Part shown: positions 22,936-48,217 of the stretch, piece after piece
Position numbering within the stretch: position 1 is the stretch's first letter
How the letters are laid out: each line of letters opens with the position of its first letter
Position numbers and translations under genes: made by a program
From: an uncultured Candidatus Berkelbacteria bacterium
GTDB lineage: Bacteria; Patescibacteriota; UBA1384; UBA12157; JAENIV01
Assembly: GCA_963698075.1 (NCBI GenBank)
Contig: OY969116.1
Location: forward strand, 670,131-734,130
Direction of reading: 5' to 3'
DNA: 64,000 bases
Notes under the pieces: model-generated
Seen by the model: the letters and a program-made list of their open reading frames with translations, nothing else
Databases searched by the model: none
Told to the model about the DNA's origin: nothing

Positions 22936-23687
22936 TGGAATATCTTCAATCTGCTTGGAAAATTAAGATTCCTAAAGTTCAAAGAGATGACGTGTCGTCT
23001 AAAAATTACATTGCGGTCGCTTTGTCTTTACCACCCGCTTATTACAGAAAACGTCTTAAAAAAATTGGTTTTTGGGGAAAGGACACTGAATTATTAGATG
23101 CCGGTTGCGGCGCCGGTCATTGGGCAATTGCCGCCTCGTATCTTAATGAGAAAGTCAGCGGGATTGATTTGACGGAAAATTATCTAAACATTGCCAAAAA
23201 AATTAATGGCCAATTCAAGCGAAAAAATCTTCATTTAAAACTTGGCCGACTGGAAAATTTGCCCGATCCCGATTGCTCCTTTGATTTTATCCTCTGTTAC
23301 AACGCCTGGATGTATACCAACCGCCCAGAAAGTTTGCAAGAAATGACTCGAGTTTTAAAGCCGGGAGGGAAAATTTATTTAGGTTGTATCGCTGGTCTTG
23401 GCTGGTATTTATATCTCTTGAGCCATGGATTCAAAAAGAATAAACGCTCTTTAATTTTTGATTCTCTGAAGGCGATTAAAAGAAAAGTCTACACCACCGA
23501 ACAAGAAACAAAAAAGCTGCTAAAAAAACAAGGTTTAAAAATTCTGGGAATCGGGGCTGATGGTCAATTAGGCGATCCAAAAATCAAAGTTACCCCCGTC
23601 GGCCCAGCTAAAAAGTTTGGTTTTTGGAATGTTTATGAAGTCTTGGCCGAGAAGCCAAAATTATCGAAGGGAATGAATGAAAATTAA
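22923..23687 (+). CDS. class I SAM-dependent methyltransferase
   Basis: Motif I LDAGCGAGHW. Motif post-I VLKPGGKIYLG. Confidence 0.7.
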   Translation: MVKIMEYLQSAWKIKIPKVQRDDVSSKNYIAVALSLPPAYYRKRLKKIGFWGKDTELLDAGCGAGHWAIAASYLNEKVSGIDLTENYLNIAKKINGQFKRKNLHLKLGRLENLPDPDCSFDFILCYNAWMYTNRPESLQEMTRVLKPGGKIYLGCIAGLGWYLYLLSHGFKKNKRSLIFDSLKAIKRKVYTTEQETKKLLKKQGLKILGIGADGQLGDPKIKVTPVGPAKKFGFWNVYEVLAEKPKLSKGMNEN

Positions 23688-24801
23688 CATTGCCTCTCCT
23701 CAAATTGGTCAAGAAGAAATTAAAGCTGTTGTTGAGGTCCTTAAATCCGGCATGTTGGCTCAAGGACCCAAAGTCGCGGAATTTGAAAGAAATTTCGCCC
23801 GTTTTATTGGTACCAAATATGCCGTTGCCACTTCTTCCGGCACAACGGCTTTACATGTGGCCCTGCTGGCCCACGGCCTTGGCCCAGGTGATGAAGTTAT
23901 TACCTCACCCTTTACTTTCATCGCCACCGCCAATTCGATTCTTTATACTGGCGCTCGGCCGGTTTTTGCCGACATCGACGAAAGAACTAATAATGCGTAT
24001 AATATCGACCCAGAAAAGATCGAAAAATTAATTAATAAGAAAACTCGAGCCATCATACCAGTTCATCTTTACGGGGCTGCTTGCGACATGACGAGGATTA
24101 TGGCGATCGCCAGAAAGCACAAACTGATAGTTATTGAAGACGCCTGTCAAGCTCATGGCGCCAAGTGGAAAGACAAAAAAGTCGGTTCCTTCGGCACTGG
24201 AACCTTTTCTTTGTATCCGACTAAGAATATGACGACCGGTGAGGGCGGGATGATCACCACCAATTCACGAACAATCTATGAAAAAGCCAATTTAATCCGG
24301 GCCCATGGGTCCCGGGTTCGTTACTATCATGAAGTTTTAGGTTATAATTTTCGGATGACTGATCTTGAGGCGGCTATTGGTATTGAACAACTCAAAAAAT
24401 TGCCAAAACTTAACCGCTTACGTCAAAAAAACGCCGCTTATTTATCAAAGAATTTAGCCAAGATTCACGGTATTATTATTCCAGCTCCTGATAATAATGC
24501 TAACCATGTTTTGCATGCGTGGCATCAATATACCATTCGGATAACTCCGGAATTTGGTCTTTCCCGCGATGCATTTTTAGCTAAATTAACCGAAAGCTCC
24601 ATTGGCACTGCTGTCTTTTATCCCTTGCCGATTAACGAGCAGAAGTTGTATCAAGACTTGGGTTTTAAACCCAATACGCCCGTTGCCGCCAAAGTCGCCA
24701 AAGAAGTCATATCTTTACCTGTTCATCCCGGATTAAAGAAAAGAGATTTAGATTATATCATCAAAACTATCCGAAGCCTGGCGGCAAAAAATGCCCACTA
24801 A
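23677..24801 (+). CDS. DegT/DnrJ/EryC1/StrS-family PLP-dependent sugar aminotransferase (WbpE-like)
   Basis: Conserved TSSGTTALHVAL. PLP-lysine region FSLYPTKNMTTGEGG. Confidence 0.85.
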   Translation: MKINIASPQIGQEEIKAVVEVLKSGMLAQGPKVAEFERNFARFIGTKYAVATSSGTTALHVALLAHGLGPGDEVITSPFTFIATANSILYTGARPVFADIDERTNNAYNIDPEKIEKLINKKTRAIIPVHLYGAACDMTRIMAIARKHKLIVIEDACQAHGAKWKDKKVGSFGTGTFSLYPTKNMTTGEGGMITTNSRTIYEKANLIRAHGSRVRYYHEVLGYNFRMTDLEAAIGIEQLKKLPKLNRLRQKNAAYLSKNLAKIHGIIIPAPDNNANHVLHAWHQYTIRITPEFGLSRDAFLAKLTESSIGTAVFYPLPINEQKLYQDLGFKPNTPVAAKVAKEVISLPVHPGLKKRDLDYIIKTIRSLAAKNAH

Positions 24802-30787: not shown

Positions 30788-31543
30788 ATGAAAAAAAATT
30801 CCCGTCAAAAATTGAAATCAAATCGGGCAGTGATTATGGCCGGCGGCAAGGGAATGAGACTTCGTCCGCTGACAAAATACTGCCCCAAACCAATGGTCAA
30901 GGTTGCTGGCCAGCCGATTTTAGAAAGAATCATCCTTCGTTTTTTAGATCATGGCATCCATCAATTTTATATTTCGATTAATTATCTTGGCAAGACAATT
31001 GAAAATTATTTCGGCGATGGCCAAAAATTCGGCTGCAAGATTAAATATCTTAAAGAGAAAAAATATTTACATACCGGCGGCTCATTATCATTGCTCAAGG
31101 ATCAAATTGAAGAACCATTGATTGTGATGAACGGTGATCTTGTCACCCAGATTGATTTTGATCATTTCTTAGATTTTCATCAAAAGGGTAAGTTTTTAGC
31201 CACCATGGGGGTGAGGCCTTATAGCTTCGAGATCCCCTTTGGGATCGTCAAAGCTCAAAAAAATCAAATGTTTGGCTTAGAAGAAAAACCAACCAGTAAC
31301 TATTTAATTAATGCCGGCATCTATGTTTTAAATCCTGAAGTTTTAAAACTAATTCCCAAAAATCGAGTTTTTCCCCTGACGAATTTATTTGAAAGATTAC
31401 TTCGTCAAAAAAAGAAAGTTGGTGTCTATAAGATTCAAGAAGATTGGATTGATGTCGGTCGCCTGGAGGAATTAGAAAAAGCCCATGAAGATCTTTTAAG
31501 ATTGGAGGAAAAATACCTAAAAAATACAAAAAAATCCTTGTGA
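30788..31543 (+). CDS. sugar-phosphate nucleotidyltransferase
   Basis: AVIMAGGKGMRLRPLTKYCPKPMV (G-x-G-x-R-L motif). Confidence 0.75.
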   Translation: MKKNSRQKLKSNRAVIMAGGKGMRLRPLTKYCPKPMVKVAGQPILERIILRFLDHGIHQFYISINYLGKTIENYFGDGQKFGCKIKYLKEKKYLHTGGSLSLLKDQIEEPLIVMNGDLVTQIDFDHFLDFHQKGKFLATMGVRPYSFEIPFGIVKAQKNQMFGLEEKPTSNYLINAGIYVLNPEVLKLIPKNRVFPLTNLFERLLRQKKKVGVYKIQEDWIDVGRLEELEKAHEDLLRLEEKYLKNTKKSL

Positions 31544-32523
31544 CCGGGGCTGATGGTTTTATTGGCTCGCATCTTACGGAAGAGTTAGTCAGGCGCGGTT
31601 ACCAGACGAGGGCCTTTGTTTTTTACAATTCTTTCAATTCCTGGGGTTGGCTTGATTACGCCGAGCCTAAAATTAAAAAGGAATTAGAGATTTTTCCCGG
31701 CGATATCCGTGACCCTAATGGTGTCCGGAAAGCCCTAAAGGATTGTGAAGCGGTCATCCATTTGGCAGCCTTGGTTTCGATTCCTTTCTCCTATCATTCA
31801 CCAGATATGTTTGTCCAGACCAATATCGTGGGGACGCTTCATATCTTGCAAGCTGCCCGAGATTTAGGGATTAAAAAAATCATTCACACCTCCACCAGTG
31901 AAGTTTACGGCACGGCCAAATATGTGCCAATAAAAGAAGATCACCCCCTACAGGGCCAATCACCCTATTCTGCGAGTAAAATCGGCGCTGATCAAATCGC
32001 CTTTTCTTTTTATAATGCTTTTGATTTGCCGGTAGCCATCTTGCGGCCTTTTAATACTTTTGGCCCCCGACAATCAGCCCGGGCGGTGATTCCCACAATT
32101 ATTACTCAAATTGCCGCCGGCAAAAAAAGTCTTAAATTAGGATCGCTTCACCCGACAAGAGATTTTAATTATGTCAAAGATACCGTCAAAGGCTTTATTG
32201 CTGCTTTAGAGGCGGGAAAGATTGAGGGGGAAACAATTAATTTAGGGACAAATCAAGAAACCTCGATTAGAAAAATAGCGGAAATGTTAATGGTATTGAT
32301 GGGCCGAAAAATAAAAATCGAGACTGAAGATAAACGGGTCAGACCGCCGAAAAGCGAAGTTGATCGGCTTCGGGCTGATAATCGCAAAGCCAAGAAACTT
32401 CTCAAGTGGCAGCCAGAATATGGAGGCAAAAATGGTCTTAAACGGGGACTTCAAGAGACGATTGATTGGTTTACAAATTTAGAGAATCTTAGACAATATA
32501 AACCCGAGATATACAATATTTAA
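31540..32523 (+). CDS. NAD-dependent epimerase/dehydratase (SDR); start uncertain (GTG at 31540, 4-bp overlap)
   Basis: VTGADGFIGSHL. Catalytic YSASKIGAD. The upstream in-frame KYKKIL stretch lacks a canonical start codon. Confidence 0.7.
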   Translation: MTGADGFIGSHLTEELVRRGYQTRAFVFYNSFNSWGWLDYAEPKIKKELEIFPGDIRDPNGVRKALKDCEAVIHLAALVSIPFSYHSPDMFVQTNIVGTLHILQAARDLGIKKIIHTSTSEVYGTAKYVPIKEDHPLQGQSPYSASKIGADQIAFSFYNAFDLPVAILRPFNTFGPRQSARAVIPTIITQIAAGKKSLKLGSLHPTRDFNYVKDTVKGFIAALEAGKIEGETINLGTNQETSIRKIAEMLMVLMGRKIKIETEDKRVRPPKSEVDRLRADNRKAKKLLKWQPEYGGKNGLKRGLQETIDWFTNLENLRQYKPEIYNI

Positions 32524-32541: not shown

Positions 32542-33534
32542 ATGAGGACATTTAGGAATAAAAAAATCTTAATCACTGGCGGCGCCGGTTTTATTGGCTC
32601 ACATTTGGCGCAAGAATTATTGAAATCTGGTTGCCGAATCACCATTGTCGACAAAATCTCATCCAAAATTCCCCAAGTCAAATCAATCCCTCAAAACCTG
32701 AAGAGATTCATTTTAAACAATGGATTAAGGACAGGTTATGATTTTATTTTTCATTTAGCCGGGACGGCCTCGGTGGGAACGTCGGTTGAGAATCCTTTTT
32801 TTGATTTTGAAGAAAATTTATACCAAACTTTAATTTTACTTGAAGCTTTACGAAGCTTGAAAAAATCACCGTTTCTAATCTATGCTTCCTCAGCCGCCGT
32901 TTATGGCATTCCCAAAAAGATGCCTGTCAGCGAAGAGAGCCCTACTTTACCGGTCTCTCCCTATGGCGTCAGCAAACTGGCGGCAGAAAGATATGTCAGA
33001 GTTTACAGCGAGCTTTACCATCTGCCAGCTGTTAATTGCCGTTTTTTTTCGGTTTATGGTCCAGGGCAGAGAAAACAAGTCATTTTTGATTTAATCTCCA
33101 AAATTCAAACAAATCCCCATGGATTAGCAGTTTTAGGGGATCCCAATCAAACTCTTGACTTAATTTATATTGACGATCTCCTTAGGGCAATTATTTTAGT
33201 CACTCAGAAGAGTCGAGGCCTAGGAGAGGTTTATAATATCGCTTCTGGAAAATCTTATAAGATGGCGGAAATTGTACGAGCTCTTGGCGCGACCCTTGGA
33301 ATAAAACCAATCATCAGATATAGTCAAGACACGCGACCAGGTACCAATCTTCAGTGGCGGGTTGATATTTCCAAGATAAAACAATTAGGTTTTAGACCAG
33401 AAATTACCTTGGCAAAAGGGTTGACGATGACTCAAGAATGGTTTGAGGTTCCTTCATTTAGTTCGTCGATAAAGCGCGTAAATTTCTCCAAGACTATAAG
33501 TTCTCACTTTATTCTTGATGATGTGGGTCAATAA
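32542..33534 (+). CDS. NAD-dependent epimerase/dehydratase (SDR)
   Basis: ITGGAGFIGSHL. Catalytic YGVSKLAAE. Confidence 0.75.
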   Translation: MRTFRNKKILITGGAGFIGSHLAQELLKSGCRITIVDKISSKIPQVKSIPQNLKRFILNNGLRTGYDFIFHLAGTASVGTSVENPFFDFEENLYQTLILLEALRSLKKSPFLIYASSAAVYGIPKKMPVSEESPTLPVSPYGVSKLAAERYVRVYSELYHLPAVNCRFFSVYGPGQRKQVIFDLISKIQTNPHGLAVLGDPNQTLDLIYIDDLLRAIILVTQKSRGLGEVYNIASGKSYKMAEIVRALGATLGIKPIIRYSQDTRPGTNLQWRVDISKIKQLGFRPEITLAKGLTMTQEWFEVPSFSSSIKRVNFSKTISSHFILDDVGQ

Positions 33535-34146
33535 TCGCTTAAAAAGAGTATTCATTCCTTCGCCGGAAAAAGATGCCCCTTGGATTTTTTCCGGGTGATG
33601 ATAAAGATGGCGATTTTGTTCATAGAATTTCACGTTTGGGCAATTCAACGCCAAATGAATAGGATGGAAATCAAAAACTTTGAGGCCTGGGTGATTGAGT
33701 TTTAAAGTTTTTAAATTAAAGCTGGCTTTTGGGCCAAAAGTTTCCATGTACCAATAATCCAAAAAGAAAATCGGTAATTCAAGTAAATTCTTGCCAATAT
33801 AAATCGGTTCAATGTTTTTAGCTAAAGGCAAAAGGATATTACTGGTATATTTGATTTTTAGATCCAATAAAACCGGTCTTAATCTTTCGTGGAAGTAAAG
33901 CGAATGATTACGGAGGCCCTGACCTTTCGGGGCAAATTTTTTGATTTTCAGAAATTCTTCTTTATAGTGGGAATAGGTGCCATTGAAATTGATGTGAGGA
34001 TTGATTTCAAAGAGAGGATTTTTTAAAATGGGATATTTTCCGGTCACAAAAAAAGTTGCCTTAAGTTTTTTGTCTTTAAGAATTTTAACCAAACTTTCAA
34101 GAATTTTTTCATCAATCCAATCGGTATCAAAAGTTAAGGCAATCAT
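33454..34146 (-). CDS. NodB/polysaccharide-deacetylase-like protein (paralog of 24791-25468)
   Basis: LTFDTDW and KATFFVTG motifs shared with the paralog. Confidence 0.4.
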   Translation of the reverse strand: MIALTFDTDWIDEKILESLVKILKDKKLKATFFVTGKYPILKNPLFEINPHINFNGTYSHYKEEFLKIKKFAPKGQGLRNHSLYFHERLRPVLLDLKIKYTSNILLPLAKNIEPIYIGKNLLELPIFFLDYWYMETFGPKASFNLKTLKLNHPGLKVFDFHPIHLALNCPNVKFYEQNRHLYHHPEKIQGASFSGEGMNTLFKRLLTHIIKNKVRTYSLGEIYALYRRTK

Positions 34147-34179
34147 TTTATCCTCAAAATTTTCGAATCCAAATAAGCA

Positions 34180-35631
34180 TTATTGGCCATATTTTTTCAT
34201 TACTTTTTTCAAATTATCAATTAAGATCTGGGTGACGATTCTTTCGGAATGATATTTTTTAAACCATTTCTCGCCTTGATGACCGATTTTTTGTCTCAGC
34301 GCGGGATTATTGATAAGTTTGATTAAGACTCTTTCAATCTCCCTCTGGTTATGGACTTTAACGATTGGTGGTTCTTCGGGATACATCCATCGACAAACCT
34401 CATGTTTATAAGACATCAGCAACGGCTTACCAGAAAGCATGACCTCGGGTGCCAAAGCTCCCATGGCCGGTAAAATTGTTTGATCTAAAACAATCTCCGC
34501 TTTTTCGAGCCAATAGGCAAGTAAATGTCTGGGCATTACCCGCTGCCACGTCACATATTTTTCAACTTTTAGCTTTTTAGCCAGCAGTTTAATCTTTGCC
34601 ACATCTAGACCCCATTCCAGAAAAATGAGCCTGAAAGGATTTTTTGTTTTTTTAATAACTTCTGGTAGAGCTTTGATATATTTATCCGTGCCCTTAATGG
34701 CCAAATCATGTCTGACAGGGCAAAAGAGGATTAAATTGTCCGTCTTTCTTTCTCTTTTCACAATTGGCCGGTAAAACCGATGCCATTTCTCTAAAATTGG
34801 ATGGGGAACAGGTTGGATATTTTTTAAACCAAGTTTTTTAGCGGCTTTAATATTGTCTGAGTTGGTAATAAAAACCAAGTCAGCTTTTCTATAGGCTAAA
34901 GCGGTGAGACGCCCGATAGGGCTATTTTCAAAGGGTAAATCGCGAATAGTGCCGTGCTCAAAGGCGATATAAGGATGCTTGCCTATGAGCATGGGATAGA
35001 TCGGGTCGGATGAATAGCCCTGAATGAGGTCATATTGCTCAAAAATTTTTTCAGCCGTTTCCCAAACAAAAAAATAGGGGCGAATATCCGAGATCTTGAG
35101 TTGATCTTGGCGTTTGGGAAAGAATTTTTTAAATTCGGCGATTAACGAATTAATTCGCTGATAATATTTTTTTCTTTTGATTGGCTCAATCGTAAAACTC
35201 TTATGCCAAATTATCCAGTTTTGAAAGATCGAAACTAGTTTCTGAATATTCTTTCTAAGAGGAGACATTTTTGATGAGCCATAACAGAATTGGTATATTT
35301 TTTGATACAAAAAGACGGTAGACTTGGCAGGATGGGCTTTTAAGGAAGTTCTTCGGGGGCCTTTGAGACCGGCCAAAAAACCAGACATTGGACCTTGATA
35401 AAACCACCTTGGCCTTTCAAAATTTCCCAAATTAACCTTTGTCCAATCGGGGTAAAAATCATCTCCGTAGTTGGCTTCTATTTTGGCATCCTCCCATTCT
35501 GGAGAACCCAAAACATGATAGTAATCGTAACAAAGGACATCAGATCGGATCCCTTTTTTTCTCAGTAGTTTTGAGGTTAGATAAGCAATATTGGCAATAT
35601 TGCCAATATGGAGAATTTTAAAATTGGCCAT
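34180..35631 (-). CDS. divergent GT4-like (GT-B fold) glycosyltransferase, 'HIGNIAN' family member 1
   Basis: N-terminal KILHIGNIANIAYL...SDVLCYDYYH. KG(T)D box FCPVRHDLAIKGTD. C-terminal LPAMGALAPEVMLSGKPLL resembling the GT4 E..G..EAMA.G.P motif. Confidence 0.45.
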   Translation of the reverse strand: MANFKILHIGNIANIAYLTSKLLRKKGIRSDVLCYDYYHVLGSPEWEDAKIEANYGDDFYPDWTKVNLGNFERPRWFYQGPMSGFLAGLKGPRRTSLKAHPAKSTVFLYQKIYQFCYGSSKMSPLRKNIQKLVSIFQNWIIWHKSFTIEPIKRKKYYQRINSLIAEFKKFFPKRQDQLKISDIRPYFFVWETAEKIFEQYDLIQGYSSDPIYPMLIGKHPYIAFEHGTIRDLPFENSPIGRLTALAYRKADLVFITNSDNIKAAKKLGLKNIQPVPHPILEKWHRFYRPIVKRERKTDNLILFCPVRHDLAIKGTDKYIKALPEVIKKTKNPFRLIFLEWGLDVAKIKLLAKKLKVEKYVTWQRVMPRHLLAYWLEKAEIVLDQTILPAMGALAPEVMLSGKPLLMSYKHEVCRWMYPEEPPIVKVHNQREIERVLIKLINNPALRQKIGHQGEKWFKKYHSERIVTQILIDNLKKVMKKYGQ

Positions 35632-38074
35632 ATTTTTTCATTACTTTTTTCAAATTATCAATTAAGATCTGGGTGACGATTTTTTTGGAGTGATATTTAT
35701 AAAACCAAAACCGCCCCTCTTTGCCAATTTTTTGAGCGAGTTTTGGATTATTGAGAAGCCTGATGACCTGATGGATAACCTCGGTTTTAGAATAAGCCGA
35801 GACAAGCGGCGGTTTTTGAGGAAACATCCATTGGCAGATTTCATGTCGGTAAGAGATGATGAGCGGTTTCCCGGCCAGCATAGCCTCTGGGGCAAGCGCG
35901 CCCATGGAAGGTAAGATGAGTTGATCAATAATCACGTCCGCTTTTTGGACCCATTTGGCTAATTGATATCTTGGCAGGGGCCTGAGCCACTGGACCCGAT
36001 CTTCGACAGCCAATTTTCTGAGCAATTGTTTGCTTCGAAAAACTTCGACGCCCCAATCGCAAAAAACAAACTTAAGGGGCCAGTGACTTTTTTTGATGAT
36101 CTCGGGGATGGCTTTAATAAAGAGATCCGTCCCTTTAATTTTCCAGTCATGTCGAGCCGGGGAAAAAATAATTTTTTCTGAGTGGGGACAATTGTTGGCG
36201 ATTTTTCCAGGATGCCATTTATCCTCAACAGCATGAGGAATAGGAACATAATTAGTTAGGCCCAATTTTCTGGCAGAGGTTAAGTTATCGGAATTAGAGA
36301 TAAAGACTAAATCCGCCTTGCGATAAGCCAAGGCGGTTAAACGTCCCCGCGGTGAATTTTCAAAAGGTATTTCTCGAAGTGTCCCAATTTCATAAGCAAC
36401 GTAGGGGTGAAAATTGGTCAATAAAGGATAAATCGCGTCAGTGGTGTAACCAAAAATAAGATCATATTTTTTAAAGATTTTTTTAAAGATCTTTATTTGG
36501 AAAAGAAAAAAGCAGATGTCATTAAGAGTCAGCTGGTCTTTTCTTTGGGGAAAAATTTTTTTGAATTCGACCACCAAACTCTCAAAATATTTTTCTTCAT
36601 GTTTATCTATGGAAAATCTGGCTTTAGATGTAATTCTTTCGAAAAACAGATTAATCTTCCGGTTAAGCTTTTTTCTTATCATAAGATATCTTTTTTTCCC
36701 TTTGGGAAACCGTTTAAAAAACCCGGTGTTTAAACCAATAAGAAAAAGCTCGAGCTTTTTCAAACCGACCCACGGATAGATGATTACGTTCAGCCCAAAA
36801 AAGCCGATATTAAACCCTCTGTTGAAGGTCCAATCCAGCCAAAACAAAAATTTATTGAGACCAAATTTTTTATTGCCAATCTTCTGGAGCGGCCCCTGCA
36901 TAAACCAAGAAGGACGTTTAAAACCGTGGAGATTCACCCGAGACCAATCCGGAAAAAAATCATCCCCATAATCTCCCTCGATAATCGCGTCCTCCCATTC
37001 GGGCGCGCCCATTATATGATAGTAATCGTAACATAAAACATCGCTCTCGATGCCTTTTGCTCGCAAATATTTGGAGTTAAGATAGGAAATATTGGCAATA
37101 TTGCCAATATGGAGAATTTTAGGATAATTGCTGATAAAGATATTTCCTTCAGAGAGTTTCAATTCTTGAATGATGGCCTGGGCTTTAAATTCAGAATTTT
37201 TGATTCTGAATTTGTTTAAAATTAGGGAATCTGTTCCTGTGGCAACGATGATAGAATTATTTATTGCCAAAATTTGACCAGGAATCTTTCCATTTTTTTT
37301 GTTTTTGCCAATTTTAACCGGTGGCAAGATTTCAATTTCTTGATTGTTAATAATCGTTCTCGCGGCCGGATAACCGGTAAAAGTTAAGGCTCTAATAAAC
37401 CGGTCGATCTCCCCGGCGCGAGCGTGCCAGTTGATCCATCTATTTTGAGGATAGACTTGTTTATGGTAGCTTCCTTCATTTAATTTTTGAGGGATTTTTT
37501 TAATTTGACCTTTTATAATGAGTTCAAAATTTTTCACAAACATCTTTTTGGCAACTTTCACACATTTAAAATAAAGAGAATGGGCCGTGTCGCGAGAGGT
37601 AATTTTAATCAATCGCTGGTCAATAATTGGACCGGTATCAATTCCCTTATCGATTTGATGAAATGTTACCCCAATTGATTCGTCATTGGAAGCCAGCGCA
37701 TAAACTACCGGCAGACAGCCGCGATTTTTTGGTAGCTCGGCAAAATGAAAATTAAAAATTCCCAATCGAGGGATTTTAATAAAATCTTCTTTTATAATTT
37801 TGTTGTAAGAGAACGAAAAAATAATCTCCGGATTTTCTTTTTTAATGTCCTTGATAAATTTTGGCTCATTGCAGGTTTTTGGTTGCCAATATTTGATATT
37901 ATTTTTTAGACAAAAAGCTTTCAAAGATTTATACCAGGATTTGACCCAAGGATGGTCATCATGATTGCAAATTACCCCGACAATATTTTCTTTTGTTTGT
38001 ATAAGATACTCTAGAGATTCAACGGCCAAATTTTTATTTCCCATTATAATAATTTTGGGTTTAAAGTTTGTCAT
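35618..38074 (-). CDS. bifunctional protein: N-terminal sugar N-formyltransferase domain fused to 'HIGNIAN' GT4-like domain
   Basis: Residues 1-about 200 carry the Fmt/ArnA-type motif FNFHFAELPKNRGCLPVVYAL...GVTFHQIDKGIDTGPII. The remainder is paralogous to 34180-35631, including an identical C-terminal tail IVTQILIDNLKKVMKKYGQ. Confidence 0.65.
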   Translation of the reverse strand: MTNFKPKIIIMGNKNLAVESLEYLIQTKENIVGVICNHDDHPWVKSWYKSLKAFCLKNNIKYWQPKTCNEPKFIKDIKKENPEIIFSFSYNKIIKEDFIKIPRLGIFNFHFAELPKNRGCLPVVYALASNDESIGVTFHQIDKGIDTGPIIDQRLIKITSRDTAHSLYFKCVKVAKKMFVKNFELIIKGQIKKIPQKLNEGSYHKQVYPQNRWINWHARAGEIDRFIRALTFTGYPAARTIINNQEIEILPPVKIGKNKKNGKIPGQILAINNSIIVATGTDSLILNKFRIKNSEFKAQAIIQELKLSEGNIFISNYPKILHIGNIANISYLNSKYLRAKGIESDVLCYDYYHIMGAPEWEDAIIEGDYGDDFFPDWSRVNLHGFKRPSWFMQGPLQKIGNKKFGLNKFLFWLDWTFNRGFNIGFFGLNVIIYPWVGLKKLELFLIGLNTGFFKRFPKGKKRYLMIRKKLNRKINLFFERITSKARFSIDKHEEKYFESLVVEFKKIFPQRKDQLTLNDICFFLFQIKIFKKIFKKYDLIFGYTTDAIYPLLTNFHPYVAYEIGTLREIPFENSPRGRLTALAYRKADLVFISNSDNLTSARKLGLTNYVPIPHAVEDKWHPGKIANNCPHSEKIIFSPARHDWKIKGTDLFIKAIPEIIKKSHWPLKFVFCDWGVEVFRSKQLLRKLAVEDRVQWLRPLPRYQLAKWVQKADVIIDQLILPSMGALAPEAMLAGKPLIISYRHEICQWMFPQKPPLVSAYSKTEVIHQVIRLLNNPKLAQKIGKEGRFWFYKYHSKKIVTQILIDNLKKVMKKYGQF

Positions 38075-39404
38075 AAATTTTAATTAATTTTTCGGTAACT
38101 ACTTTTTGACTATGATATTGAGATATCCATTTTTGAGATTTTCGTCCGTATCTCGAGGCTACTTTTCGGTTATTGACTAATTTGGCTAAATTGGTAGCGA
38201 TTTCCTCACTCGTTTTTGCCAAAATTACCGGCGGCATTTCTTTAAAAGCCCATTGGTATAAATCTTTATCAAACCACATCATCAGCGGTTTAGCTGCTGC
38301 CATTGCCTCCGCGGCGACCGTGCCAAAATAACCTTTGAATTGATCCAAAATAACCTCAGAATTTTTGTAATGTTCAACCAGTAAATTCTTTTTTAAGGGC
38401 GGAGTCCAGATAACCTTTTGAGCAATTTTTAATTTATTTATCAAGCGCTTGCTTTTTCTAACCTCTTGGCCCCATTGGCAAAGAATCAGTTTAGCTTGAA
38501 GGTGAGGCTTGTTTTTAATAAAACGATTGAAACCCTTGATAACCAAGTCATTACCCTTAATCTGCCAATTCTGTCTCGACGGCGAAAAAAATAAAATTTT
38601 TGCTTGATATTTCTTTTTTAGATTTAAACGCGGTTGATAATTAAAAATTTTTTGTTCATCCAAGGGATGAGCGAGATAAGTAAAATTTTCCAGTCCCATT
38701 TTTTTGGCGCCTAAAATGTTATCGGGGTTGGTGATAATCACCTTATCGGCCAAACGATAAGCTAGGGCTGTCAGGCGTCCTTGCGGATTGTTTTCAAAAG
38801 GGGTGTCTCGAATGGTCCCAATTTCAAAAGCAATATATGGTCTTTGACCAGCCAAAAGAGCGTAAATTGGTTCAATCCCATAGCTCTGAATTAGATCGTA
38901 ATTAGAAAAAATTTTTTTCAGCAGCCTGACATGGGGAACATAGGGGATAATATCTTCCATCATTAATCTATCTTTTCTTTTTGGAAATATCCGTCTGAAT
39001 TTAACAATTAGTTTTTTAAAATAACGATATTCTTTATAGGTCAGAGATCCATGATAAGGATTAAGATACTTAATCGTCCCGGGCCAGTAAGAGTTGATTT
39101 TAGCAACGATTTTATTGAGATTCAACCAGTCAAATTTTTTTTTATAACTATATTTTTCGGCAATCTTCTCTAACGGACCATCCATATACCACGATGGACG
39201 ACTAAATTTTTTTAAATTTCTTCGGTCATCAATTTCCCACCATTCAGGTGTCGACATAAAATGGTAAAAATCACGGGAAATAACGTCGGCCTGAATGCCT
39301 TTTTCACGCAAGAATTTGGCATTAAGATAGGCATTATTGGCAATATTACCGATATGAAGGACTCTAAATTTTTTCTTTTGGTAATTTGTTATCAATTTCA
39401 TCAA
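38061..39404 (-). CDS. divergent GT4-like glycosyltransferase, 'HIGNIAN' family member 3
   Basis: RVLHIGNIANNAYL...ADVISRDFYH. FSPSRQNWQIKGND. C-terminal TVAAEAMAAAKPLMM. Confidence 0.45.
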   Translation of the reverse strand: MMKLITNYQKKKFRVLHIGNIANNAYLNAKFLREKGIQADVISRDFYHFMSTPEWWEIDDRRNLKKFSRPSWYMDGPLEKIAEKYSYKKKFDWLNLNKIVAKINSYWPGTIKYLNPYHGSLTYKEYRYFKKLIVKFRRIFPKRKDRLMMEDIIPYVPHVRLLKKIFSNYDLIQSYGIEPIYALLAGQRPYIAFEIGTIRDTPFENNPQGRLTALAYRLADKVIITNPDNILGAKKMGLENFTYLAHPLDEQKIFNYQPRLNLKKKYQAKILFFSPSRQNWQIKGNDLVIKGFNRFIKNKPHLQAKLILCQWGQEVRKSKRLINKLKIAQKVIWTPPLKKNLLVEHYKNSEVILDQFKGYFGTVAAEAMAAAKPLMMWFDKDLYQWAFKEMPPVILAKTSEEIATNLAKLVNNRKVASRYGRKSQKWISQYHSQKVVTEKLIKIYDKL

Positions 39405-40278
39405 TTAATTTGTTTAACTTTCTAATAAAACTTAAGTTTGGTTTATTCTCGTTTTCTCTTAGATCTTCTAAGTATTTTTTAACATATTCTAAGGCCTCTT
39501 TTTTGCCATAGCCGTCTTTTTGCGCCAGGTAGAAAATCTGAACCCCTTTATAATTTTTTAAGGTTTTGTCTAAGTCGCGCAATTTCATTTGGATGGCGCG
39601 ATCATTATATTTTTTGAGATATTCTGAAAAAGTATACTTTGATTCAATTTTTTTGATCACAAAATATTTTGAGATAAGATTAGCTAAATTGTCAATTTTA
39701 AAAGATGTGTGATATTGATGAATTTTAGGTTCGACTTGGGCCTTGATCTTTAATCTTCGATTAATCATGTGAACCAAAGCCATCACGCTCCCGGTGAGCC
39801 AGCCCTGGTGGCTCAGATATTGATCTTGCTGCGGCTCGCGTCCGACGATCAGTCCATAAGGTTTGATCACGCGTCGGAGTTCAGCCAGGATGGGGTCGAT
39901 GGCCGTTTGCGGCAGATGATGCAGGACACTTGAACAAATTACAACCTTAAATTCTTCATTTTTAAAAGGTAGTTTGCGGCCATCAAGGATCCAAAAATTG
40001 CCTTTTGGAAATTTCTTTTTCGCTTCCTTAATCATTTTGGGAGAGATATCCGCCCCCACGAAAATTACTTTTTTAATCTTGGCGAACTGGTCCCACAAAA
40101 TTGCTGGACCGCAACCAAAATCAAGGACCTTATCACCTTCTTGTAATTGACCTTTGAAAAAATTAAAAAAATCTCTTATTTGGACTTTTTCCCAAAAAGT
40201 CGAGTAATATAGCTTATCATAAAGTGGCGCGATTTTATCTTCATATTCGATTTCATCTTTTTTGTAATCTTTGTACAT
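39364..40278 (-). CDS. class I SAM-dependent methyltransferase
   Basis: VLDFGCGPAILW motif I. Methyltransf_11-like. Confidence 0.7.
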   Translation of the reverse strand: MYKDYKKDEIEYEDKIAPLYDKLYYSTFWEKVQIRDFFNFFKGQLQEGDKVLDFGCGPAILWDQFAKIKKVIFVGADISPKMIKEAKKKFPKGNFWILDGRKLPFKNEEFKVVICSSVLHHLPQTAIDPILAELRRVIKPYGLIVGREPQQDQYLSHQGWLTGSVMALVHMINRRLKIKAQVEPKIHQYHTSFKIDNLANLISKYFVIKKIESKYTFSEYLKKYNDRAIQMKLRDLDKTLKNYKGVQIFYLAQKDGYGKKEALEYVKKYLEDLRENENKPNLSFIRKLNKLIDEIDNKLPKEKI

Positions 40279-40283
40279 GTTAA

Positions 40284-41543
40284 TTAATCAAGTTGGTGAT
40301 TAAAAGTCACTTCTTGATCAAACACAGTAATTAATGGTCGTTTTTTTCTAATCACCTGCATCTTGTAAGCGCGGTCGTGCAAAGAATATGGCTCGTTATG
40401 AAAAGCAGAGCCTTCTTTAGTTTTCTTCGGAAAAAAACCGATCGTTAAATAAAAATCTCCATCGCCAAGTAAAAGCGCTGGCCAAGTTATTTCGACAAAT
40501 CCCTTACCGTTAAGCTTTCCAAGATCGATCGCCTTATGAAAGGTTTCCTCTTCACCAGAGAAAAAACTGGTCGCATAAACACCATCACCTTTAGTTATTA
40601 AACAATAGACACCAGGGCTTTGAATCGGTCTAGGCGTCTGATAAGAAATTTTGACAGTTAGAGATTCGCCCTGCCAATATGAATATTTTTCAACCCCATC
40701 TTTATCGAGTAGTTTAACGTCGGTTATTTTTAACGGTCCAGAGCCAATGATTTTCTTCGTTTCTTTAGTTTTTCCAATCGTTTTGTTTTCAATTTTGAGT
40801 CTTTTGTTAACCTCTTGCATGACGCCCAATTCATATTCTTGACAGATTTCAACCGGGTCACCATCAGCTTTGATTTTACCTTTCTCGATCCAAATTGCCC
40901 GATTGCAGAGCCGTTGGACCAAAAAAGTGTTATGAGAGACAAAAAGAACAGTCGCTCCGCTCTGGCAAAGTTCAGTGATCCTTTTTATGCATTTATTGAT
41001 GAAAAAACTGTCACCGGCGGCAAGGGCTTCATCGATAATTAAAATTTGTGGCTCGATTGCCGTTGCGACTGAAAAAGTCAATCTTGTTTTCATTCCGTCA
41101 GAATAAGTTTTTAATGGTCGATCAATAAATTCTTCCAATTCGGAAAACTCAATAATTGATTGGATTTTGCGATCAATCTCTTTTTTAGACATTCCCAAAA
41201 CCATTCCACCGTTATAGATATTTTCTCGACCAGTATATTCCGGATGAAAACCAGTCCCCAATTCCAAGATGGCGGAGACTTTTCCGTTGACTTTAATCTT
41301 GCCGGAAGTTTTATCTAAAGTTCCTGACAGAATTTTAAGCAAAGTTGATTTTCCGGCGCCATTTCTACCGATTACCCCAACAACTTCACCCTTATTAATG
41401 GTGATATTAATATTTCTTAGGGCTCGAAACTCTTCGTGGAATTTTTTTCTAAATATAACTTCTTTTAAAAGATCTTTCGGTTCTCGATAGATCTTATATA
41501 CTTTTGACAAATTTTTAATCTCGATCGTGATATTACTTTTCAT
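40284..41543 (-). CDS. polysaccharide ABC exporter ATP-binding protein (Wzt/TagH-like) with C-terminal glycan-binding extension
   Basis: Walker A GRNGAGKST. Signature YSDGMKTRL. Walker B ILIIDEAL. About 170-aa extra C-terminal domain as in Wzt. Confidence 0.8.
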   Translation of the reverse strand: MKSNITIEIKNLSKVYKIYREPKDLLKEVIFRKKFHEEFRALRNINITINKGEVVGVIGRNGAGKSTLLKILSGTLDKTSGKIKVNGKVSAILELGTGFHPEYTGRENIYNGGMVLGMSKKEIDRKIQSIIEFSELEEFIDRPLKTYSDGMKTRLTFSVATAIEPQILIIDEALAAGDSFFINKCIKRITELCQSGATVLFVSHNTFLVQRLCNRAIWIEKGKIKADGDPVEICQEYELGVMQEVNKRLKIENKTIGKTKETKKIIGSGPLKITDVKLLDKDGVEKYSYWQGESLTVKISYQTPRPIQSPGVYCLITKGDGVYATSFFSGEEETFHKAIDLGKLNGKGFVEITWPALLLGDGDFYLTIGFFPKKTKEGSAFHNEPYSLHDRAYKMQVIRKKRPLITVFDQEVTFNHQLD

Positions 41544-41618: not shown

Positions 41619-42497
41619 TCATAACGATTTACAAATTTCTTTTATCGGCTGGATATTGATCTCCTTCTTCTGGAGACTGTCCCAGCCATATTTTCGATCT
41701 GTCCAATTATCTCCAATTTTATACCAATAACTAATGCGATCGGTGTTAAAATAAGCCGTCGAATTACTTTTAATACATTTTTCTTTTGGCAAATATCCAA
41801 AATTTGGCTCAAGCGTTAAGAGATAATAATCATCATATAAATTTGGATAATTATCAATATAGTAGGGATATAAGTTCAGTTCTGAAACTGAAGGCCAGTG
41901 TTGGCCAGCAAGAATTATTGGATAATCTATAAGGTCGGCATCAATGATATGCCAATGGTTATTCCAATAAACCCCAGCAACGATGTGAGATGCTAATCCG
42001 ACCAGACGGGCTTGGTAACCATTAGCAAGTGCAATATCAACAATAAGACGGGCAATATGCCCACATCTGCCGGAGCCGATTTCCAGCAAAACAACAGGGT
42101 CAGAAACCACCGAACCATCTTCATAAAGGGGTTGTTGAAAGTTGTGGTTATACATCGTTAAATGAACCTGACGGATTATGTTTTCCCATTTTAATTCCTC
42201 ACTCTGAAAGGGGAAACTTGCTTCCCAAAAAAGTTTTCTTAAAACCGGCTGGCGAGAAACTCCGTAAAGTTCATTCTCAATACCATGAATTACTTGAAAA
42301 TCTATTGCATCTTTAGGATATTCGCCGTATTGGCTTTTCTCAAACATTTTCTCGGGTGTCTGCCAAGTTTTTGCCTTCTCTTGATATTTTGTCCACGAGG
42401 CTGTTTTAAGATATTCGGAAGTTTTAGCATCTAAATCCTGAGGAAAATAAATCAATGAATTTAATACCCAAATTATTAGAAGAATTTTGGCAGTCAT
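41619..42497 (-). CDS. secreted/membrane-anchored transglutaminase-like (Cys-His-Asp) protein
   Basis: GSGRCGHIARLIVDIALANGY...HIVAGVYWNNHWHIIDAD fits a papain-like transglutaminase core. N-terminal signal/anchor. Confidence 0.4.
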   Translation of the reverse strand: MTAKILLIIWVLNSLIYFPQDLDAKTSEYLKTASWTKYQEKAKTWQTPEKMFEKSQYGEYPKDAIDFQVIHGIENELYGVSRQPVLRKLFWEASFPFQSEELKWENIIRQVHLTMYNHNFQQPLYEDGSVVSDPVVLLEIGSGRCGHIARLIVDIALANGYQARLVGLASHIVAGVYWNNHWHIIDADLIDYPIILAGQHWPSVSELNLYPYYIDNYPNLYDDYYLLTLEPNFGYLPKEKCIKSNSTAYFNTDRISYWYKIGDNWTDRKYGWDSLQKKEINIQPIKEICKSL

Positions 42498-42505
42498 TAT
42501 TCCCC

Positions 42506-43303
42506 TTATAAAACATTGGCAAAAAATGGTTTAACTTTTCGGAAAAACTTAAAGCCAAGAATAAAAATAATTATTGACAAACTTACAAAAATAACAAAAC
42601 TCCAGGGATGATTGATCCGGCCATAAATTAAGACATCCCGGTACATATTAATAAGATGGGTCATCGGATTAAGTAAGAAAGGCCAACGAAAGGCCGAAGG
42701 AATCGAATTTTCAAGATAGAGCACCGGTGTGACAAACATCCCGATTAAAAGAATAATAGTCACGATTTCTTTCAGATCGCGCAAATAAACTGCCAGGGCC
42801 GCCAAAATCCAACCAAGGCCAACAGAAAAAATAAAATGAATGAGGATGATTAAGGGCAAAAGGGCATAGGTCCAACTAAGATGGTTGGGCAAGGCCAAGA
42901 TAACAATAATGACAAAAATGGTAAGACCAATAAACAGAGTCAGGAAGCTAGTCAAAATACCATTAATTGGTAAAATATCGATGGGGAAAATTACCTGTTT
43001 GACTAAATTGGCATTGCTGACAATGGAATTGGTGCTTTTTACTAATCCTTCTTGCATCACAATCCAAGGTATCAGCCCGGCAATGGCATAAAGAGCGTAT
43101 TCTAGGGGAGTGGCGCCTTGGCCGATTCTCACTTGAAAAATAAAAGTAAAAATGAGAGTATAAATTCCTACCAAGAAAAGTGGGTAAAAAAGAGCCCAAA
43201 ATAATCCCAAGGCCGAACCGGCGTATCGGTCAGTCAATTCTTTGTAGGACATTCTCATGATGAGAGCTCGGTTTTTCCAAAAAATTTCGAAAACTTTCGG
43301 CAA
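42506..43303 (-). CDS. ABC-2 type polysaccharide exporter permease (Wzm-like)
   Basis: Six TM helices. Size 265 aa. Adjacent to the Wzt-like ATPase. Confidence 0.75.
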   Translation of the reverse strand: MPKVFEIFWKNRALIMRMSYKELTDRYAGSALGLFWALFYPLFLVGIYTLIFTFIFQVRIGQGATPLEYALYAIAGLIPWIVMQEGLVKSTNSIVSNANLVKQVIFPIDILPINGILTSFLTLFIGLTIFVIIVILALPNHLSWTYALLPLIILIHFIFSVGLGWILAALAVYLRDLKEIVTIILLIGMFVTPVLYLENSIPSAFRWPFLLNPMTHLINMYRDVLIYGRINHPWSFVIFVSLSIIIFILGFKFFRKVKPFFANVL

Positions 43304-45623: not shown

Positions 45624-45631
45624 TTTTAATT

Positions 45632-48215: not shown

Positions 48216-48217
48216 AA

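Follow-up and report, generated by a model that had tools for sequence, protein, structure and literature searches.

A formyltransferase and a glycosyltransferase joined in one open reading frame of a Wzm/Wzt operon

An 818-aa open reading frame in the 64-kb window (the whole stretch of DNA that was analysed) encodes a formyltransferase (FT, residues 1-313) and a glycosyltransferase (GT, residues 319-818) linked by about five residues (ISNYP). The frame, hereafter FT::GT, most likely results from a genuine fusion of neighbouring genes that is specific to this lineage; it is built from ordinary, well-known parts, and the join itself is known from one genome only, as a singleton on one contig. 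Among the matches listed in searches covering 5.8 billion clusters and 1.84 billion representatives, FT::GT was the sole one to match both halves. No second FT+GT protein was present among the 150 best matches when 1.84 billion representative proteins were searched exhaustively, and no other example of the architecture was found in the databases searched or in a literature search, in line with the sequence-only reading of this DNA, which knew of no characterised case. The frame pointed out by that reading is present, with both motifs that it quoted, FNFHFAELPKNRGCLPVVYAL at residues 107-127 and GVTFHQIDKGIDTGPII at residues 135-151. Its parts are as follows.

35618..38074, minus strand: FT::GT fusion frame, 818 aa (ORF list and Pfam/NCBIfam domains).
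37532..38053, minus strand: Formyl_trans_N catalytic subdomain, residues 8-181 (Pfam E=3.9e-24).
37751-37753, 37745-37747 and 37637-37639, minus strand: catalytic codons N108, H110 and D146, respectively.
37136..37450, minus strand: Formyl_trans_C-type subdomain and FT C-terminus, residues 209-313 (PF02911, alignment with P0121).
37121..37135, minus strand: junction, residues 314-318, ISNYP (DNA comparison with the start of GT483, see below).
36215..37120, minus strand: N-terminal Rossmann half of the GT-B domain, residues 319 to ~620 (AlphaFold model, alignment A1).
36554..36856, minus strand: helical amphipathic insert, residues ~407-507 (AlphaFold model, hydropathy).
35711..36193, minus strand: C-terminal Rossmann half (Glycos_transf_1), residues 628-788 (Pfam E=3.4e-15).

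Judged by its sequence, the first half is a complete ArnA-type sugar formyltransferase with an intact Asn108/His110/Asp146 triad. Formyl_trans_N scored 85.8 bits against a Pfam cutoff of 26.1, and PF02911 (Formyl_trans_C) was matched at residues 209-292 (E=1.3e-11); like the Glycos_transf_1 match of the second half, both lie well outside the range of chance. The triad, whose loss would have counted against the sequence-only reading, is retained: it aligns with N102/H104/D140 of ArnA, and in alignment A3 conservation is complete for H110 and D146 and at least 90% for N108. When the single FT sequence was searched against the PDB, ArnA was the top match (2e-31), and a profile of the FT clade gave 167 bits for ArnA, 147 for QdtF and about 141 for Fmt and WlaRD. 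Both proposed domains are confirmed, with other limits: FT spans about 313 residues instead of about 200, and GT starts at about 315-319, not at 330. The stand-alone formyltransferase P0121 aligns with the fusion up to residue 312-313 or so; more generally, stand-alone FT relatives stop around residue 313 and stand-alone GT relatives start around residue 315 (fusion numbering), so that the fusion contains essentially no linker.

The second half is, according to its structural model, a complete GT-B glycosyltransferase, closest in structure to retaining GT4 enzymes, as had been suggested for the C-terminal part of the frame. The AlphaFold model (pLDDT 90.6, pTM 0.88) had only retaining GT4 enzymes as top Foldseek matches (BshA, sucrose-phosphate synthase, HepE, PimB', MshA and PglA), and the family profile also matched GT4 structures in the PDB. 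Glycos_transf_1 corresponds to the nucleotide-sugar-binding half. The N-terminal half, for which no Pfam model gave a match, carries at residues 322-328 the HIGNIAN motif of the family. Across the 72 sequences of alignment A1, L321, H322 and N325 are invariant, and the fused GT retains every one of the 20 family-invariant residues. The canonical EX7E motif apparently has another residue in place of its first Glu, the sequence reading DQLILPSMGALAPEAM. The insert is modelled as helices (H93-193, pLDDT partly low) and contains the hydropathy maximum, and the corresponding insert of the Nostoc and Bacillota GTs has long hydrophobic stretches; it is probably a membrane-association element.

FT::GT is the sixth gene of an eight-gene operon, in the order Wzm, transglutaminase-like, Wzt, methyltransferase, GT, FT::GT, GT, WbmS-like. 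All eight share one strand and are tightly packed or overlapping, with overlaps of 14 to 41 nt. Further gene fusions are present elsewhere in the window. The DNA probably comes from a Patescibacterium, a member of the candidate phyla radiation (CPR). The genes that matter here are the following.

42506..43303, minus strand: Wzm, ABC-2 permease, first gene of the operon (domain match).
40284..41543, minus strand: Wzt, ABC-transporter ATPase with a C-terminal carbohydrate-binding domain (ABC_tran E=1e-24; Wzt_C 49.1 bits, cutoff 30.4).
39364..40278, minus strand: SAM-dependent methyltransferase, candidate chain-capping enzyme (domain match).
38061..39404, minus strand: GT447, a more distant HIGNIAN-type GT (orthologue of GT500 of metagenomic locus L001, 47% identity).
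34180..35631, minus strand: GT483, stand-alone paralogue of the fused GT (50% amino-acid identity).
33454..34146, minus strand: WbmS-like protein, polysaccharide deacetylase family (PF22537 E=8e-35).
23677..24801, plus strand: DegT-family aminotransferase (Pfam E=1.5e-133).

The DegT protein matches PseC and ArnB in NCBIfam and is the only copy in the window (tblastn); it is the likely source of the amino sugar for FT. Other amino-sugar genes in the window encode a 6-dehydrogenase, a 3-dehydrogenase, a nucleotidyltransferase and a 4,6-dehydratase of LegB type whose score exceeds the curated cutoff. No Ara4N pathway was evident within the 64 kb.

The account towards which we lean, by a modest measure, is that of a genuine lineage-specific fusion in which FT makes an NDP-formamido sugar and GT extends a surface glycan exported by Wzm/Wzt. 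The dehydrogenase or dehydratase genes of the locus, together with the single DegT, would make an NDP-amino sugar, which FT would formylate with N10-formyl-tetrahydrofolate. The helical insert would hold GT at the membrane, where it would add a sugar to an undecaprenyl-linked chain on the cytoplasmic face; that this sugar is the formamido sugar is plausible, not demonstrable. The neighbouring methyltransferase would probably cap the chain, and Wzm/Wzt would export it after recognition of the cap by the carbohydrate-binding tail of Wzt. Direct channelling of the formylated sugar into the polymer, which the sequence-only reading proposed, is a supposition that goes beyond these observations. The 5-residue tether could hinder either domain, a point against the favoured account.

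FT and GT may instead both be active and uncoupled, GT transferring a sugar not made by FT with no kinetic benefit from the fusion, which would merely mirror the overlapping start and stop codons of a compact genome; we hold this to be the less probable course, though one to be taken seriously. All relatives found (metagenome, Nostoc, Bacillota MAG) encode FT on its own. The nearest reference orthologue of the fused GT, in a Saccharibacteria MAG (48% identity), belongs to a Wzt-methyltransferase-GT-GT operon devoid of FT, so that this type of GT needs no formamido donor, and FT was nearby in only 2 of 39 reference loci with the HIGNIAN GT family. This family is fused elsewhere to whatever adjoins it: to a methyltransferase (P0008, P0271), to a second GT4 (P0214) or to a radical-SAM/SPASM domain (P0278, P0279). 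Together with the singleton status of FT::GT, these observations are consistent with an opportunistic joining of adjacent genes. The gene overlaps in the operon and the other fusions in the window favour it too, as does a published survey in which glycosyltransferase and O-antigen genes were over-represented in fusion/fission families (PMC11237513). On the other hand, FT adjoins HIGNIAN-family GTs in three other lineages, which argues for some functional tie. In L001, whose FT is 53% identical, GT489, a GT of the fused type, shares a block with FT, WbmS-like and GT genes. L001 and Nostoc sp. CHAB 5844 share Wzt, methyltransferase, GT, FT, WbmS-like and sometimes another GT gene, and in the Bacillota MAG FT lies between two HIGNIAN-family GTs with DegT adjoining. 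More distant FT relatives mostly adjoin DegT, and a methyltransferase directly follows Wzt also in L001, L003, L005 and L040.

We regard as improbable an Arn-like logic, in which FT would formylate the amino sugar, GT would transfer it and the WbmS-like enzyme would later remove the formyl group, as in ArnA-FT/ArnC/ArnD; formylation would then pull the aminotransferase equilibrium forward or mark the donor. A variant, equally improbable, has the WbmS-like enzyme first strip an N-acetyl group and thereby create the FT substrate. FT is indeed most similar to the FT domain of ArnA, and at the L001 and Nostoc loci a WbmS-like gene comes immediately after the FT gene, with which it overlaps, just as arnD follows arnA in the arn operon. 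Both the TFDTD motif of NodB type and conserved His residues are retained in the WbmS-like protein, which matches Bordetella WbmS (PDB 3HFT, E=5e-17). However, no specific similarity of this protein to ArnD was found in PDB or NCBIfam searches, and WbmS-like genes adjoin the HIGNIAN GT family without FT at L007, L011, L020, L022, L025 and L038.

The possibility that a sequencing or assembly error merged two genes, the cell making a 313-aa FT and a 500-aa GT, appears slight once the junction is inspected. The singleton status on one contig would fit such an artefact, as would the failure to find the fusion protein in the independent Logan assemblies, where neighbouring genes were found, and the presence of two exact repeats that the fusion gene shares with GT483, of 34 nt (37088-37121 and 35587-35620) and 59 nt (35623-35681 and 34182-34240). 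Nevertheless, the reading frame continues through the join uninterrupted by a stop codon, no homopolymer run occurs there, and both alternative frames are full of stops. The junction 'ATC AGC AAT TAT CCT' corresponds to the GT483 start 'ATG GCC AAT TTT': the old start codon has become ATC, and the GT N-terminus offers no ATG, GTG or TTG. The junction is outside the repeats, with the 34-nt repeat 14 nt downstream of it, so a misjoin at the repeats cannot have made the fusion; swapping the sequence downstream of the 34-nt repeat would still leave an in-frame FT-GT. The absence from Logan is accounted for by breakage at the repeats at k=31. The GT module beside the junction is duplicated and partly deleted: GT483 and the fusion frame overlap by 14 nt, and a remnant of a third copy follows.

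34147..34190, minus strand: remnant, 5' end of a third GT copy, reading MAN|NAYLDSKILR, with the FKILHIGNIA segment deleted.

The ATC codon, the lack of stop or homopolymer and the duplicated module thus make a genuine lineage-specific fusion most likely. The fusion probably arose during recombination by which the GT module, too, was duplicated and partly deleted.

That the N-terminal domain is the host's methionyl-tRNA formyltransferase (Fmt), accidentally fused to GT, is hardly credible: the Fmt model TIGR00460 gave 149 bits, below both its cutoff of 201.5 and the 178 bits of the NCBIfam ArnA model, the PxGR(G/K)...PPxVK tRNA-recognition loop and the C-terminal LQxxGKK...EFLRG motif, both present in 5/5 Fmt-annotated sequences of alignment A3, were not found in FT, and the nearest relatives of FT all lie within glycan operons, although automated annotation labels many 30%-identity relatives Fmt. 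The sequence-only reading was therefore right to favour a sugar-type enzyme; it had taken an Fmt-like C-terminal domain as a sign to the contrary, and a Formyl_trans_C-type subdomain is present, but this is not diagnostic, being common to Fmt, ArnA and QdtF.

Among known systems, the operon resembles the ABC-transporter O-polysaccharide systems of E. coli O8/O9a, which have a capping enzyme and a carbohydrate-binding module on Wzt; here there are Wzm, Wzt bearing Wzt_C and an adjoining methyltransferase. The window also brings together formyltransferase, aminotransferase, methyltransferase, asparagine-synthase-like and WbmS genes, as does the Bordetella wbm locus (PMC12243275 for the first four, PDB 3HFT for WbmS). 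It differs from both in gene order and GT types, and its probable patescibacterial host would have no outer membrane, so that the operon product would be no O-antigen.

The fused GT shares the GT-B fold and a Glycos_transf_1 C-terminal half with BshA (6N1X/3MBO), sucrose-phosphate synthase (6KIH), HepE (4XSU), PimB' (3OKA), MshA (3C48) and PglA (8DQD), with Foldseek E-values from 1e-12 to 1e-9 and target-normalised TM-scores of 0.6-0.76; unlike these, to which it is only 12-19% identical, it has the HIGNIAN motif and the helical insert of about 100 residues. As in P0008 (GT 49% identical), P0271, P0214 and P0279, the HIGNIAN GT lies C-terminal to a glycan-modifying enzyme (in P0278 it is N-terminal), whereas the partner in these five proteins is never a formyltransferase.

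On the FT side, QdtF (4XCZ), FdtF (5UIJ) and WlaRD (4LXQ), matched in the PDB at 1e-29 to 1e-42, are likewise sugar formyltransferases with an extra C-terminal module, encoded beside DegT-type aminotransferases. These modules consist of ankyrin repeats or a ketoisomerase-like domain, and none of the three enzymes is known to include a glycosyltransferase. FT relatives of about 400 aa that adjoin DegT in metagenomes resemble this multi-domain type. The closest counterpart is the N-terminal domain of ArnA (2BLN, 1YRW, 1Z7E), the UDP-4-amino-4-deoxy-L-arabinose N-formyltransferase, top match by single sequence and by clade profile, with the same Formyl_trans_N and Formyl_trans_C layout, the Asn/His/Asp triad and a short loop where Fmt has its tRNA-recognition loop. 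Identity is only about 30%, and the 178 bits compare with an ArnA equivalog cutoff of 777. ArnA is itself a fusion, joining two steps of one sugar pathway, with a UDP-GlcA decarboxylase in the place taken here by a glycosyltransferase.

An 818-aa open reading frame (ORF) occupies 35618..38074 of the minus strand, and both motifs quoted in the sequence-only reading are present in its product. Pfam places Formyl_trans_N at residues 8-181 (E=3.9e-24; 85.8 bits, gathering cutoff 26.1), Formyl_trans_C at residues 209-292 (E=1.3e-11) and Glycos_transf_1 at residues 628-788 (E=3.4e-15; 56.5 bits, cutoff 26.4). The formyltransferase (FT) proposed for residues ~1-200 is therefore confirmed in identity but not in extent: Pfam and the ends of homologues give it about 313 residues in two subdomains. 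Similarly, the C-terminal half is glycosyltransferase (GT)-like as proposed, but it begins at about residues 315-319 rather than 330. On the PDB-match alignment, N108, H110 and D146 fall on N102, H104 and D140, the catalytic triad of ArnA, so that the triad, whose loss had been considered, is retained. Across an alignment of 12 FT sequences (A3), H110 and D146 never vary, and conservation of N108 is 90% or more. The folate-loop motif HxSLLPxxRG is kept as the variant H110-FAELPKNRG-119, in which L114, P115, R118 and G119 are invariant in A3. Two intact, complete catalytic modules share a single reading frame.

In the GT half, the invariant L-H-x-x-N within the HIGNIAN motif, which lies at the N-terminus of this GT family, and about 20 other invariant family positions are all kept in the fusion. 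The structure modelled was that of the GT domain alone; a singleton fusion gives no co-evolution signal between its two domains. The AlphaFold model (72 homologues; pLDDT 90.6, pTM 0.88) pairs two Rossmann halves with a helical insert of ~100 residues, partly of low confidence. Its top 50 Foldseek matches were GT4 or other retaining GT-B enzymes, the best being BshA, sucrose-phosphate synthase, HepE, PimB', MshA, TarM and PglA. As modelled, the GT half is a two-Rossmann GT-B fold with its closest structural neighbours in GT4. Residues 319-620 had no Pfam match, hence no recognisable Glyco_transf_4 or Glyco_trans_4_4 N-terminal domain, and the family profile matched PDB GT4 chains in the C-terminal half only. 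The EX7E region, as read from the sequence itself, is ...DQLILPSMGALAPEAM..., with the second Glu present and a Pro eight residues before it; the family shows an invariant DQ pair instead. Within the protein, hydrophobicity is highest in the helical insert, although this holds no clear transmembrane segment. Long hydrophobic runs occur in the same insert of Nostoc and Bacillota homologues, and we infer that the insert associates with the membrane.

The fusion gene is the sixth of an eight-gene minus-strand operon with gaps of at most 75 nt or overlaps of at most 41 nt. The order is Wzm, transglutaminase-like, Wzt, SAM methyltransferase, GT447, FT::GT, GT483, WbmS-like. The export genes encode an ABC2_membrane permease and an ATPase with ABC_tran and Wzt_C domains (Wzt_C 49.1 bits, cutoff 30.4); the methyltransferase directly downstream of Wzt is a candidate capping enzyme. 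The features accompanying the fusion are as follows.

41619-42497, minus strand: transglutaminase-like superfamily gene, inserted between Wzm and Wzt
38061-39404, minus strand: GT447, a more distant HIGNIAN-type GT
34180-35631, minus strand: GT483, stand-alone paralogue of the fused GT
34147-34190, minus strand: 5'-terminal remnant of another, third HIGNIAN-type GT, located after GT483 and ahead of the WbmS-like gene

The transglutaminase-like gene is absent from the syntenic loci L001 (metagenomic) and L040. The surrounding region of at least 40 kb encodes a UDP-sugar 6-dehydrogenase, a WbpB-like 3-dehydrogenase, one DegT aminotransferase, a nucleotidyltransferase, a LegB-type 4,6-dehydratase above cutoff and several SDR epimerases. 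It also encodes two hexapeptide acyltransferases and two asparagine-synthase-like amidotransferases; further GTs and Wzx-like flippases are also present. Overall, the glycan locus (~15000-59000) has a GC content of 36-41%, versus 45-50% in its flanks, and its >40 kb make up ~5% of the 929-kb contig. Several of its genes are of note in their own right.

24791-25468 (plus strand), 33454-34146 (minus strand), 47532-48215 (plus strand): two clear WbmS-like proteins, sharing 37% identity, plus a third protein that is a weak deacetylase-family member
26450-27427, plus strand: 325-aa protein inside the sugar-modification block, weakly matching the FemAB family (TIGR03019, 5e-12)
27962-29764 and 45566-47542: two AsnB-like amidotransferases
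30788-32523, plus strand: sugar-1-phosphate nucleotidyltransferase, then the 4,6-dehydratase (488.5 bits, curated LegB cutoff 475)
48164-50032, plus strand: 622-aa fusion of a modifying enzyme and a GT, the N-terminus being an acyltransferase of hexapeptide-repeat type and the C-terminus Glycos_transf_1-like
50029-51525: separate Wzx-like flippase
53585-55849, plus strand: 754-aa protein with two GT4 modules
56625-58994, plus strand: 789-aa protein, a GT4 module joined to a Polysacc_synt (Wzx-like flippase) domain

The nucleotidyltransferase and LegB-type dehydratase suggest a route to a GDP-GlcNAc-type 4-amino-4,6-dideoxy-HexNAc, besides the WbpB/DegT 3-amination route. The WbmS-like and AsnB-like genes suggest that N-acyl and carboxyl groups are remodelled extensively, and the FemAB-like protein gives a hint that an amino sugar is decorated with aminoacyl groups. 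With Wzm/Wzt and the Wzx-like genes, ABC-type and Wzx-type export machineries are both present in the 64-kb window.

In keeping with the sequence-only reading, which knew of no characterised case, the searches turned up no second example of the architecture. A word-indexed search of 5.8 billion clusters found the FT and GT domains together solely in the query, among the matches listed. An exhaustive phmmer search against 1.84 billion representatives gave no match to both halves among its 150 best proteins: P0121, a stand-alone FT, matched the FT half alone and all others the GT half alone. None of 30 metagenomic FT relatives lay in an ORF longer than 463 aa, and a literature search found no description of an FT-GT fusion. 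For FT joined to this GT family, which is what the searches covered, the fusion is so far unique to one genome. Ten further proteins of the window were also looked up, and all were singletons at 90% identity; the genome is missing from the GTDB species representatives. Named relatives of the PilB/GspE ATPase encoded in the window belong to Patescibacteria and Candidatus Berkelbacteria (56-70% identity), and the syntenic relative carries one homologue on its contig.

Unfused, the two partners are found side by side. P0121 (310 aa) is the closest FT, at 53% identity, and lies in L001. The gene orders around three stand-alone FTs are the following.

L001, syntenic: Wzm, Wzt, methyltransferase, GT500, FT310 (P0121), WbmS-like, GT489
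Nostoc sp. CHAB 5844: Wzt, methyltransferase, GT536, FT323, WbmS-like
Bacillota MAG: GT538, FT258, DegT, GT604

From these loci, FT and the HIGNIAN GT family are recurrent neighbours. FT relatives also adjoin DegT (in the Bacillota MAG and among metagenomic relatives); in the window, the FT sits in a Wzm/Wzt glycan operon, and the DegT aminotransferase of this locus lies at a distance of 11 kb. The pairing of FT and GT is optional: of 39 reference-genome loci with a HIGNIAN GT (L003-L041), only two have an FT nearby. The HIGNIAN GT-B subfamily itself is spread over Patescibacteria, Planctomycetota, Cyanobacteria, Proteobacteria, Bacillota, Chloroflexota and Omnitrophota (L003-L041; P0002-P0330), in the first five of these within Wzm/Wzt loci, and in the 39 loci its members usually adjoin asparagine-synthase-like amidotransferases, DegT and Wzm/Wzt. 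For the N-terminal half of the subfamily there is no Pfam model, and we know of no characterised member.

On balance, we lean towards a functional coupling of the two halves. The FT would formylate an NDP-amino sugar with N10-formyl-THF, as ArnA, WlaRD and QdtF suggest, and the membrane-held GT would extend a lipid-linked chain. The methyltransferase would then cap this chain, by analogy with ABC-transporter-dependent O-polysaccharide assembly, and the carbohydrate-binding module of Wzt would recognise the cap, the chain being exported by Wzm/Wzt. It is plausible that the donor of the GT is the product of the FT.

The strongest competitor, which we judge unlikely, is that the fusion is real and incidental, FT and GT acting uncoupled. 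Among reference genomes, the nearest orthologue of the fused GT (48% identity, from a Saccharibacteria MAG) lies in a Wzt-methyltransferase-GT-GT operon without FT, a core found in Berkelbacteria and Saccharibacteria MAGs alike, and HIGNIAN GTs are fused elsewhere to methyltransferases, a second GT4 or radical-SAM/SPASM domains. Against this stands the recurrence of the FT-GT-WbmS-like neighbourhood. At the opposite end, and improbable in our estimation, the fusion could be anything but incidental: a 'make and place' enzyme formylating an amino sugar and installing it at once, as a special residue or as a chain-terminating cap read by Wzt, or else a membrane-bound FT, tethered by the GT, formylating the lipid-linked glycan after transfer. 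In the latter case, the substrate of this sugar N-formyltransferase would be a polymer and not a nucleotide sugar. We give little credence to an Arn-like cycle, in which formylation and transfer would be followed by deformylation by the WbmS-like protein. This protein belongs to the deacetylase family, but PDB and NCBIfam searches gave it no specific ArnD match.

Around the junction, the stand-alone FT terminus ...LNLKEGDILG (P0121) aligns with ...LKLSEGNIF of the fusion up to about residue 313, and the alignment with the stand-alone GT start M-x-x-F-K-I-L-H-I-G-N begins near residue 315. In the DNA, 'ATC AGC AAT TAT CCT AAA ATT CTC CAT' of the fusion is the counterpart of 'ATG GCC AAT TTT AAA ATT CTC CAT' at the start of GT483, so that the former start codon of the GT is now ATC. 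A former or internal GT start at the TTG codon 305 was ruled out, since FT homology runs in frame to ~313 (LKLSEGNI against LNLKEGDI in P0121). Neither a stop codon nor a homopolymer run occurs at the junction, and stops abound in both other frames.

As paralogues, the fused GT and GT483 share 50% identity, and GT489 of the syntenic relative is closest to both. Fusion gene and GT483 share two exact repeats, one of 34 nt (37088-37121 = 35587-35620) and one of 59 nt (35623-35681 = 34182-34240), the latter taking in the start of the next gene (ATGGCCAAT). Such identity, extending over a gene start between proteins otherwise ~50% identical, suggests a recent gene conversion. The remnant downstream of GT483 reads MAN followed by NAYLDSKILRIK and a stop, with FKILHIGNIA deleted, which indicates a past tandem duplication, then deletion of a GT module. 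Evidently, as read from these repeats and the remnant, recombination has duplicated, converted and in part deleted the GT module, and it was against this background that the fusion came about.

Repeats of this kind could raise the suspicion of an assembly artefact, and the fusion and GT483 were indeed absent from the Logan assemblies, where neighbouring genes were present. This absence is probably due to the repeats, at which k=31 graphs would break. With the junction outside the 34-nt repeat, 14 nt upstream of it, misassembly at the repeats could not create the fusion. Given also the in-frame join and the ATC at the former start, an artefact is highly improbable.

The nature of the FT was examined by profile comparisons. 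With the N-terminal 316 residues, NCBIfam ranked the ArnA N-terminal half first (178 bits), followed by the PRK06988 formyltransferase (171) and Fmt (149). Curated equivalog cutoffs were missed for ArnA (NF005998, 178 versus 777), PRK06988 (NF005414, 171 versus 316) and the dTDP-Qui4N FT (NF005755, 60 versus 238 bits); the domain is therefore not assignable to any of the characterised orthologue groups. Among solved structures, the ArnA FT domain (2e-31), WlaRD (9e-30) and QdtF (4e-29) matched better than Fmt (6e-25). A profile of the four closest clade members widened the gap (ArnA 167 bits, QdtF 147, Fmt and WlaRD ~141). A better fit to Fmt, with its C-terminal tRNA-binding domain, had been named as speaking against a sugar enzyme; the C-terminal subdomain is present, yet this does not overturn the assignment in substance, as ArnA and QdtF also carry it. 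In A3, the tRNA-recognition loop PxGR(G/K)...PPxVK and the C-terminal basic motif LQxxGKK...EFLRG are present in all five Fmt-annotated sequences and absent from the fusion, P0121, P0122 (a further sequence of A3) and the Nostoc FT, which have an ArnA-like short loop in place of the Fmt loop. No second formyltransferase was found within the window. The missing loop and motif, together with a score of 149.2 bits against the TIGR00460 Fmt cutoff of 201.5, leave almost no room for the N-terminal domain being Fmt.

Judged by its PilB/GspE homologues and by the Wzt-methyltransferase-GT-GT core that it shares with Berkelbacteria and Saccharibacteria MAGs, the host is probably a candidate phyla radiation (CPR) bacterium, a Berkelbacteria-like Patescibacterium, whose 929-kb contig may be most of the genome. 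In such a host, 'O-antigen' would be the wrong term, and the product is better called a surface glycopolymer exported by Wzm/Wzt. A diderm host, considered from a BepA-like match, was withdrawn, the match being merely an M48 peptidase domain (64 bits, cutoff 570). More than 40 kb of a very small genome is given over to an elaborate surface glycan, probably with N-formyl and amide groups, and the source of formyl-tetrahydrofolate in such a cell becomes a relevant question.

If functional, the fusion would be a 'Rosetta stone' tying the widespread, uncharacterised HIGNIAN GT4-like subfamily to formamido-sugar chemistry, and this functional hint is its main use, together with its convenience as a single polypeptide for testing the coupling of formylation and transfer. 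It is no new type of enzyme or system: each half is an unremarkable member of a large family. Neighbouring glycan genes are often found fused, and FT::GT is, by its domain content, a bifunctional glycan-pathway enzyme made that way. Among known loci, the Bordetella wbm locus brings together genes for formyltransferase, aminotransferase, methyltransferase and asparagine synthase (PMC12243275). The glycan locus of the window resembles it in gene repertoire, and the likeness extends to WbmS itself, which the WbmS-like operon gene matches (PDB 3HFT).
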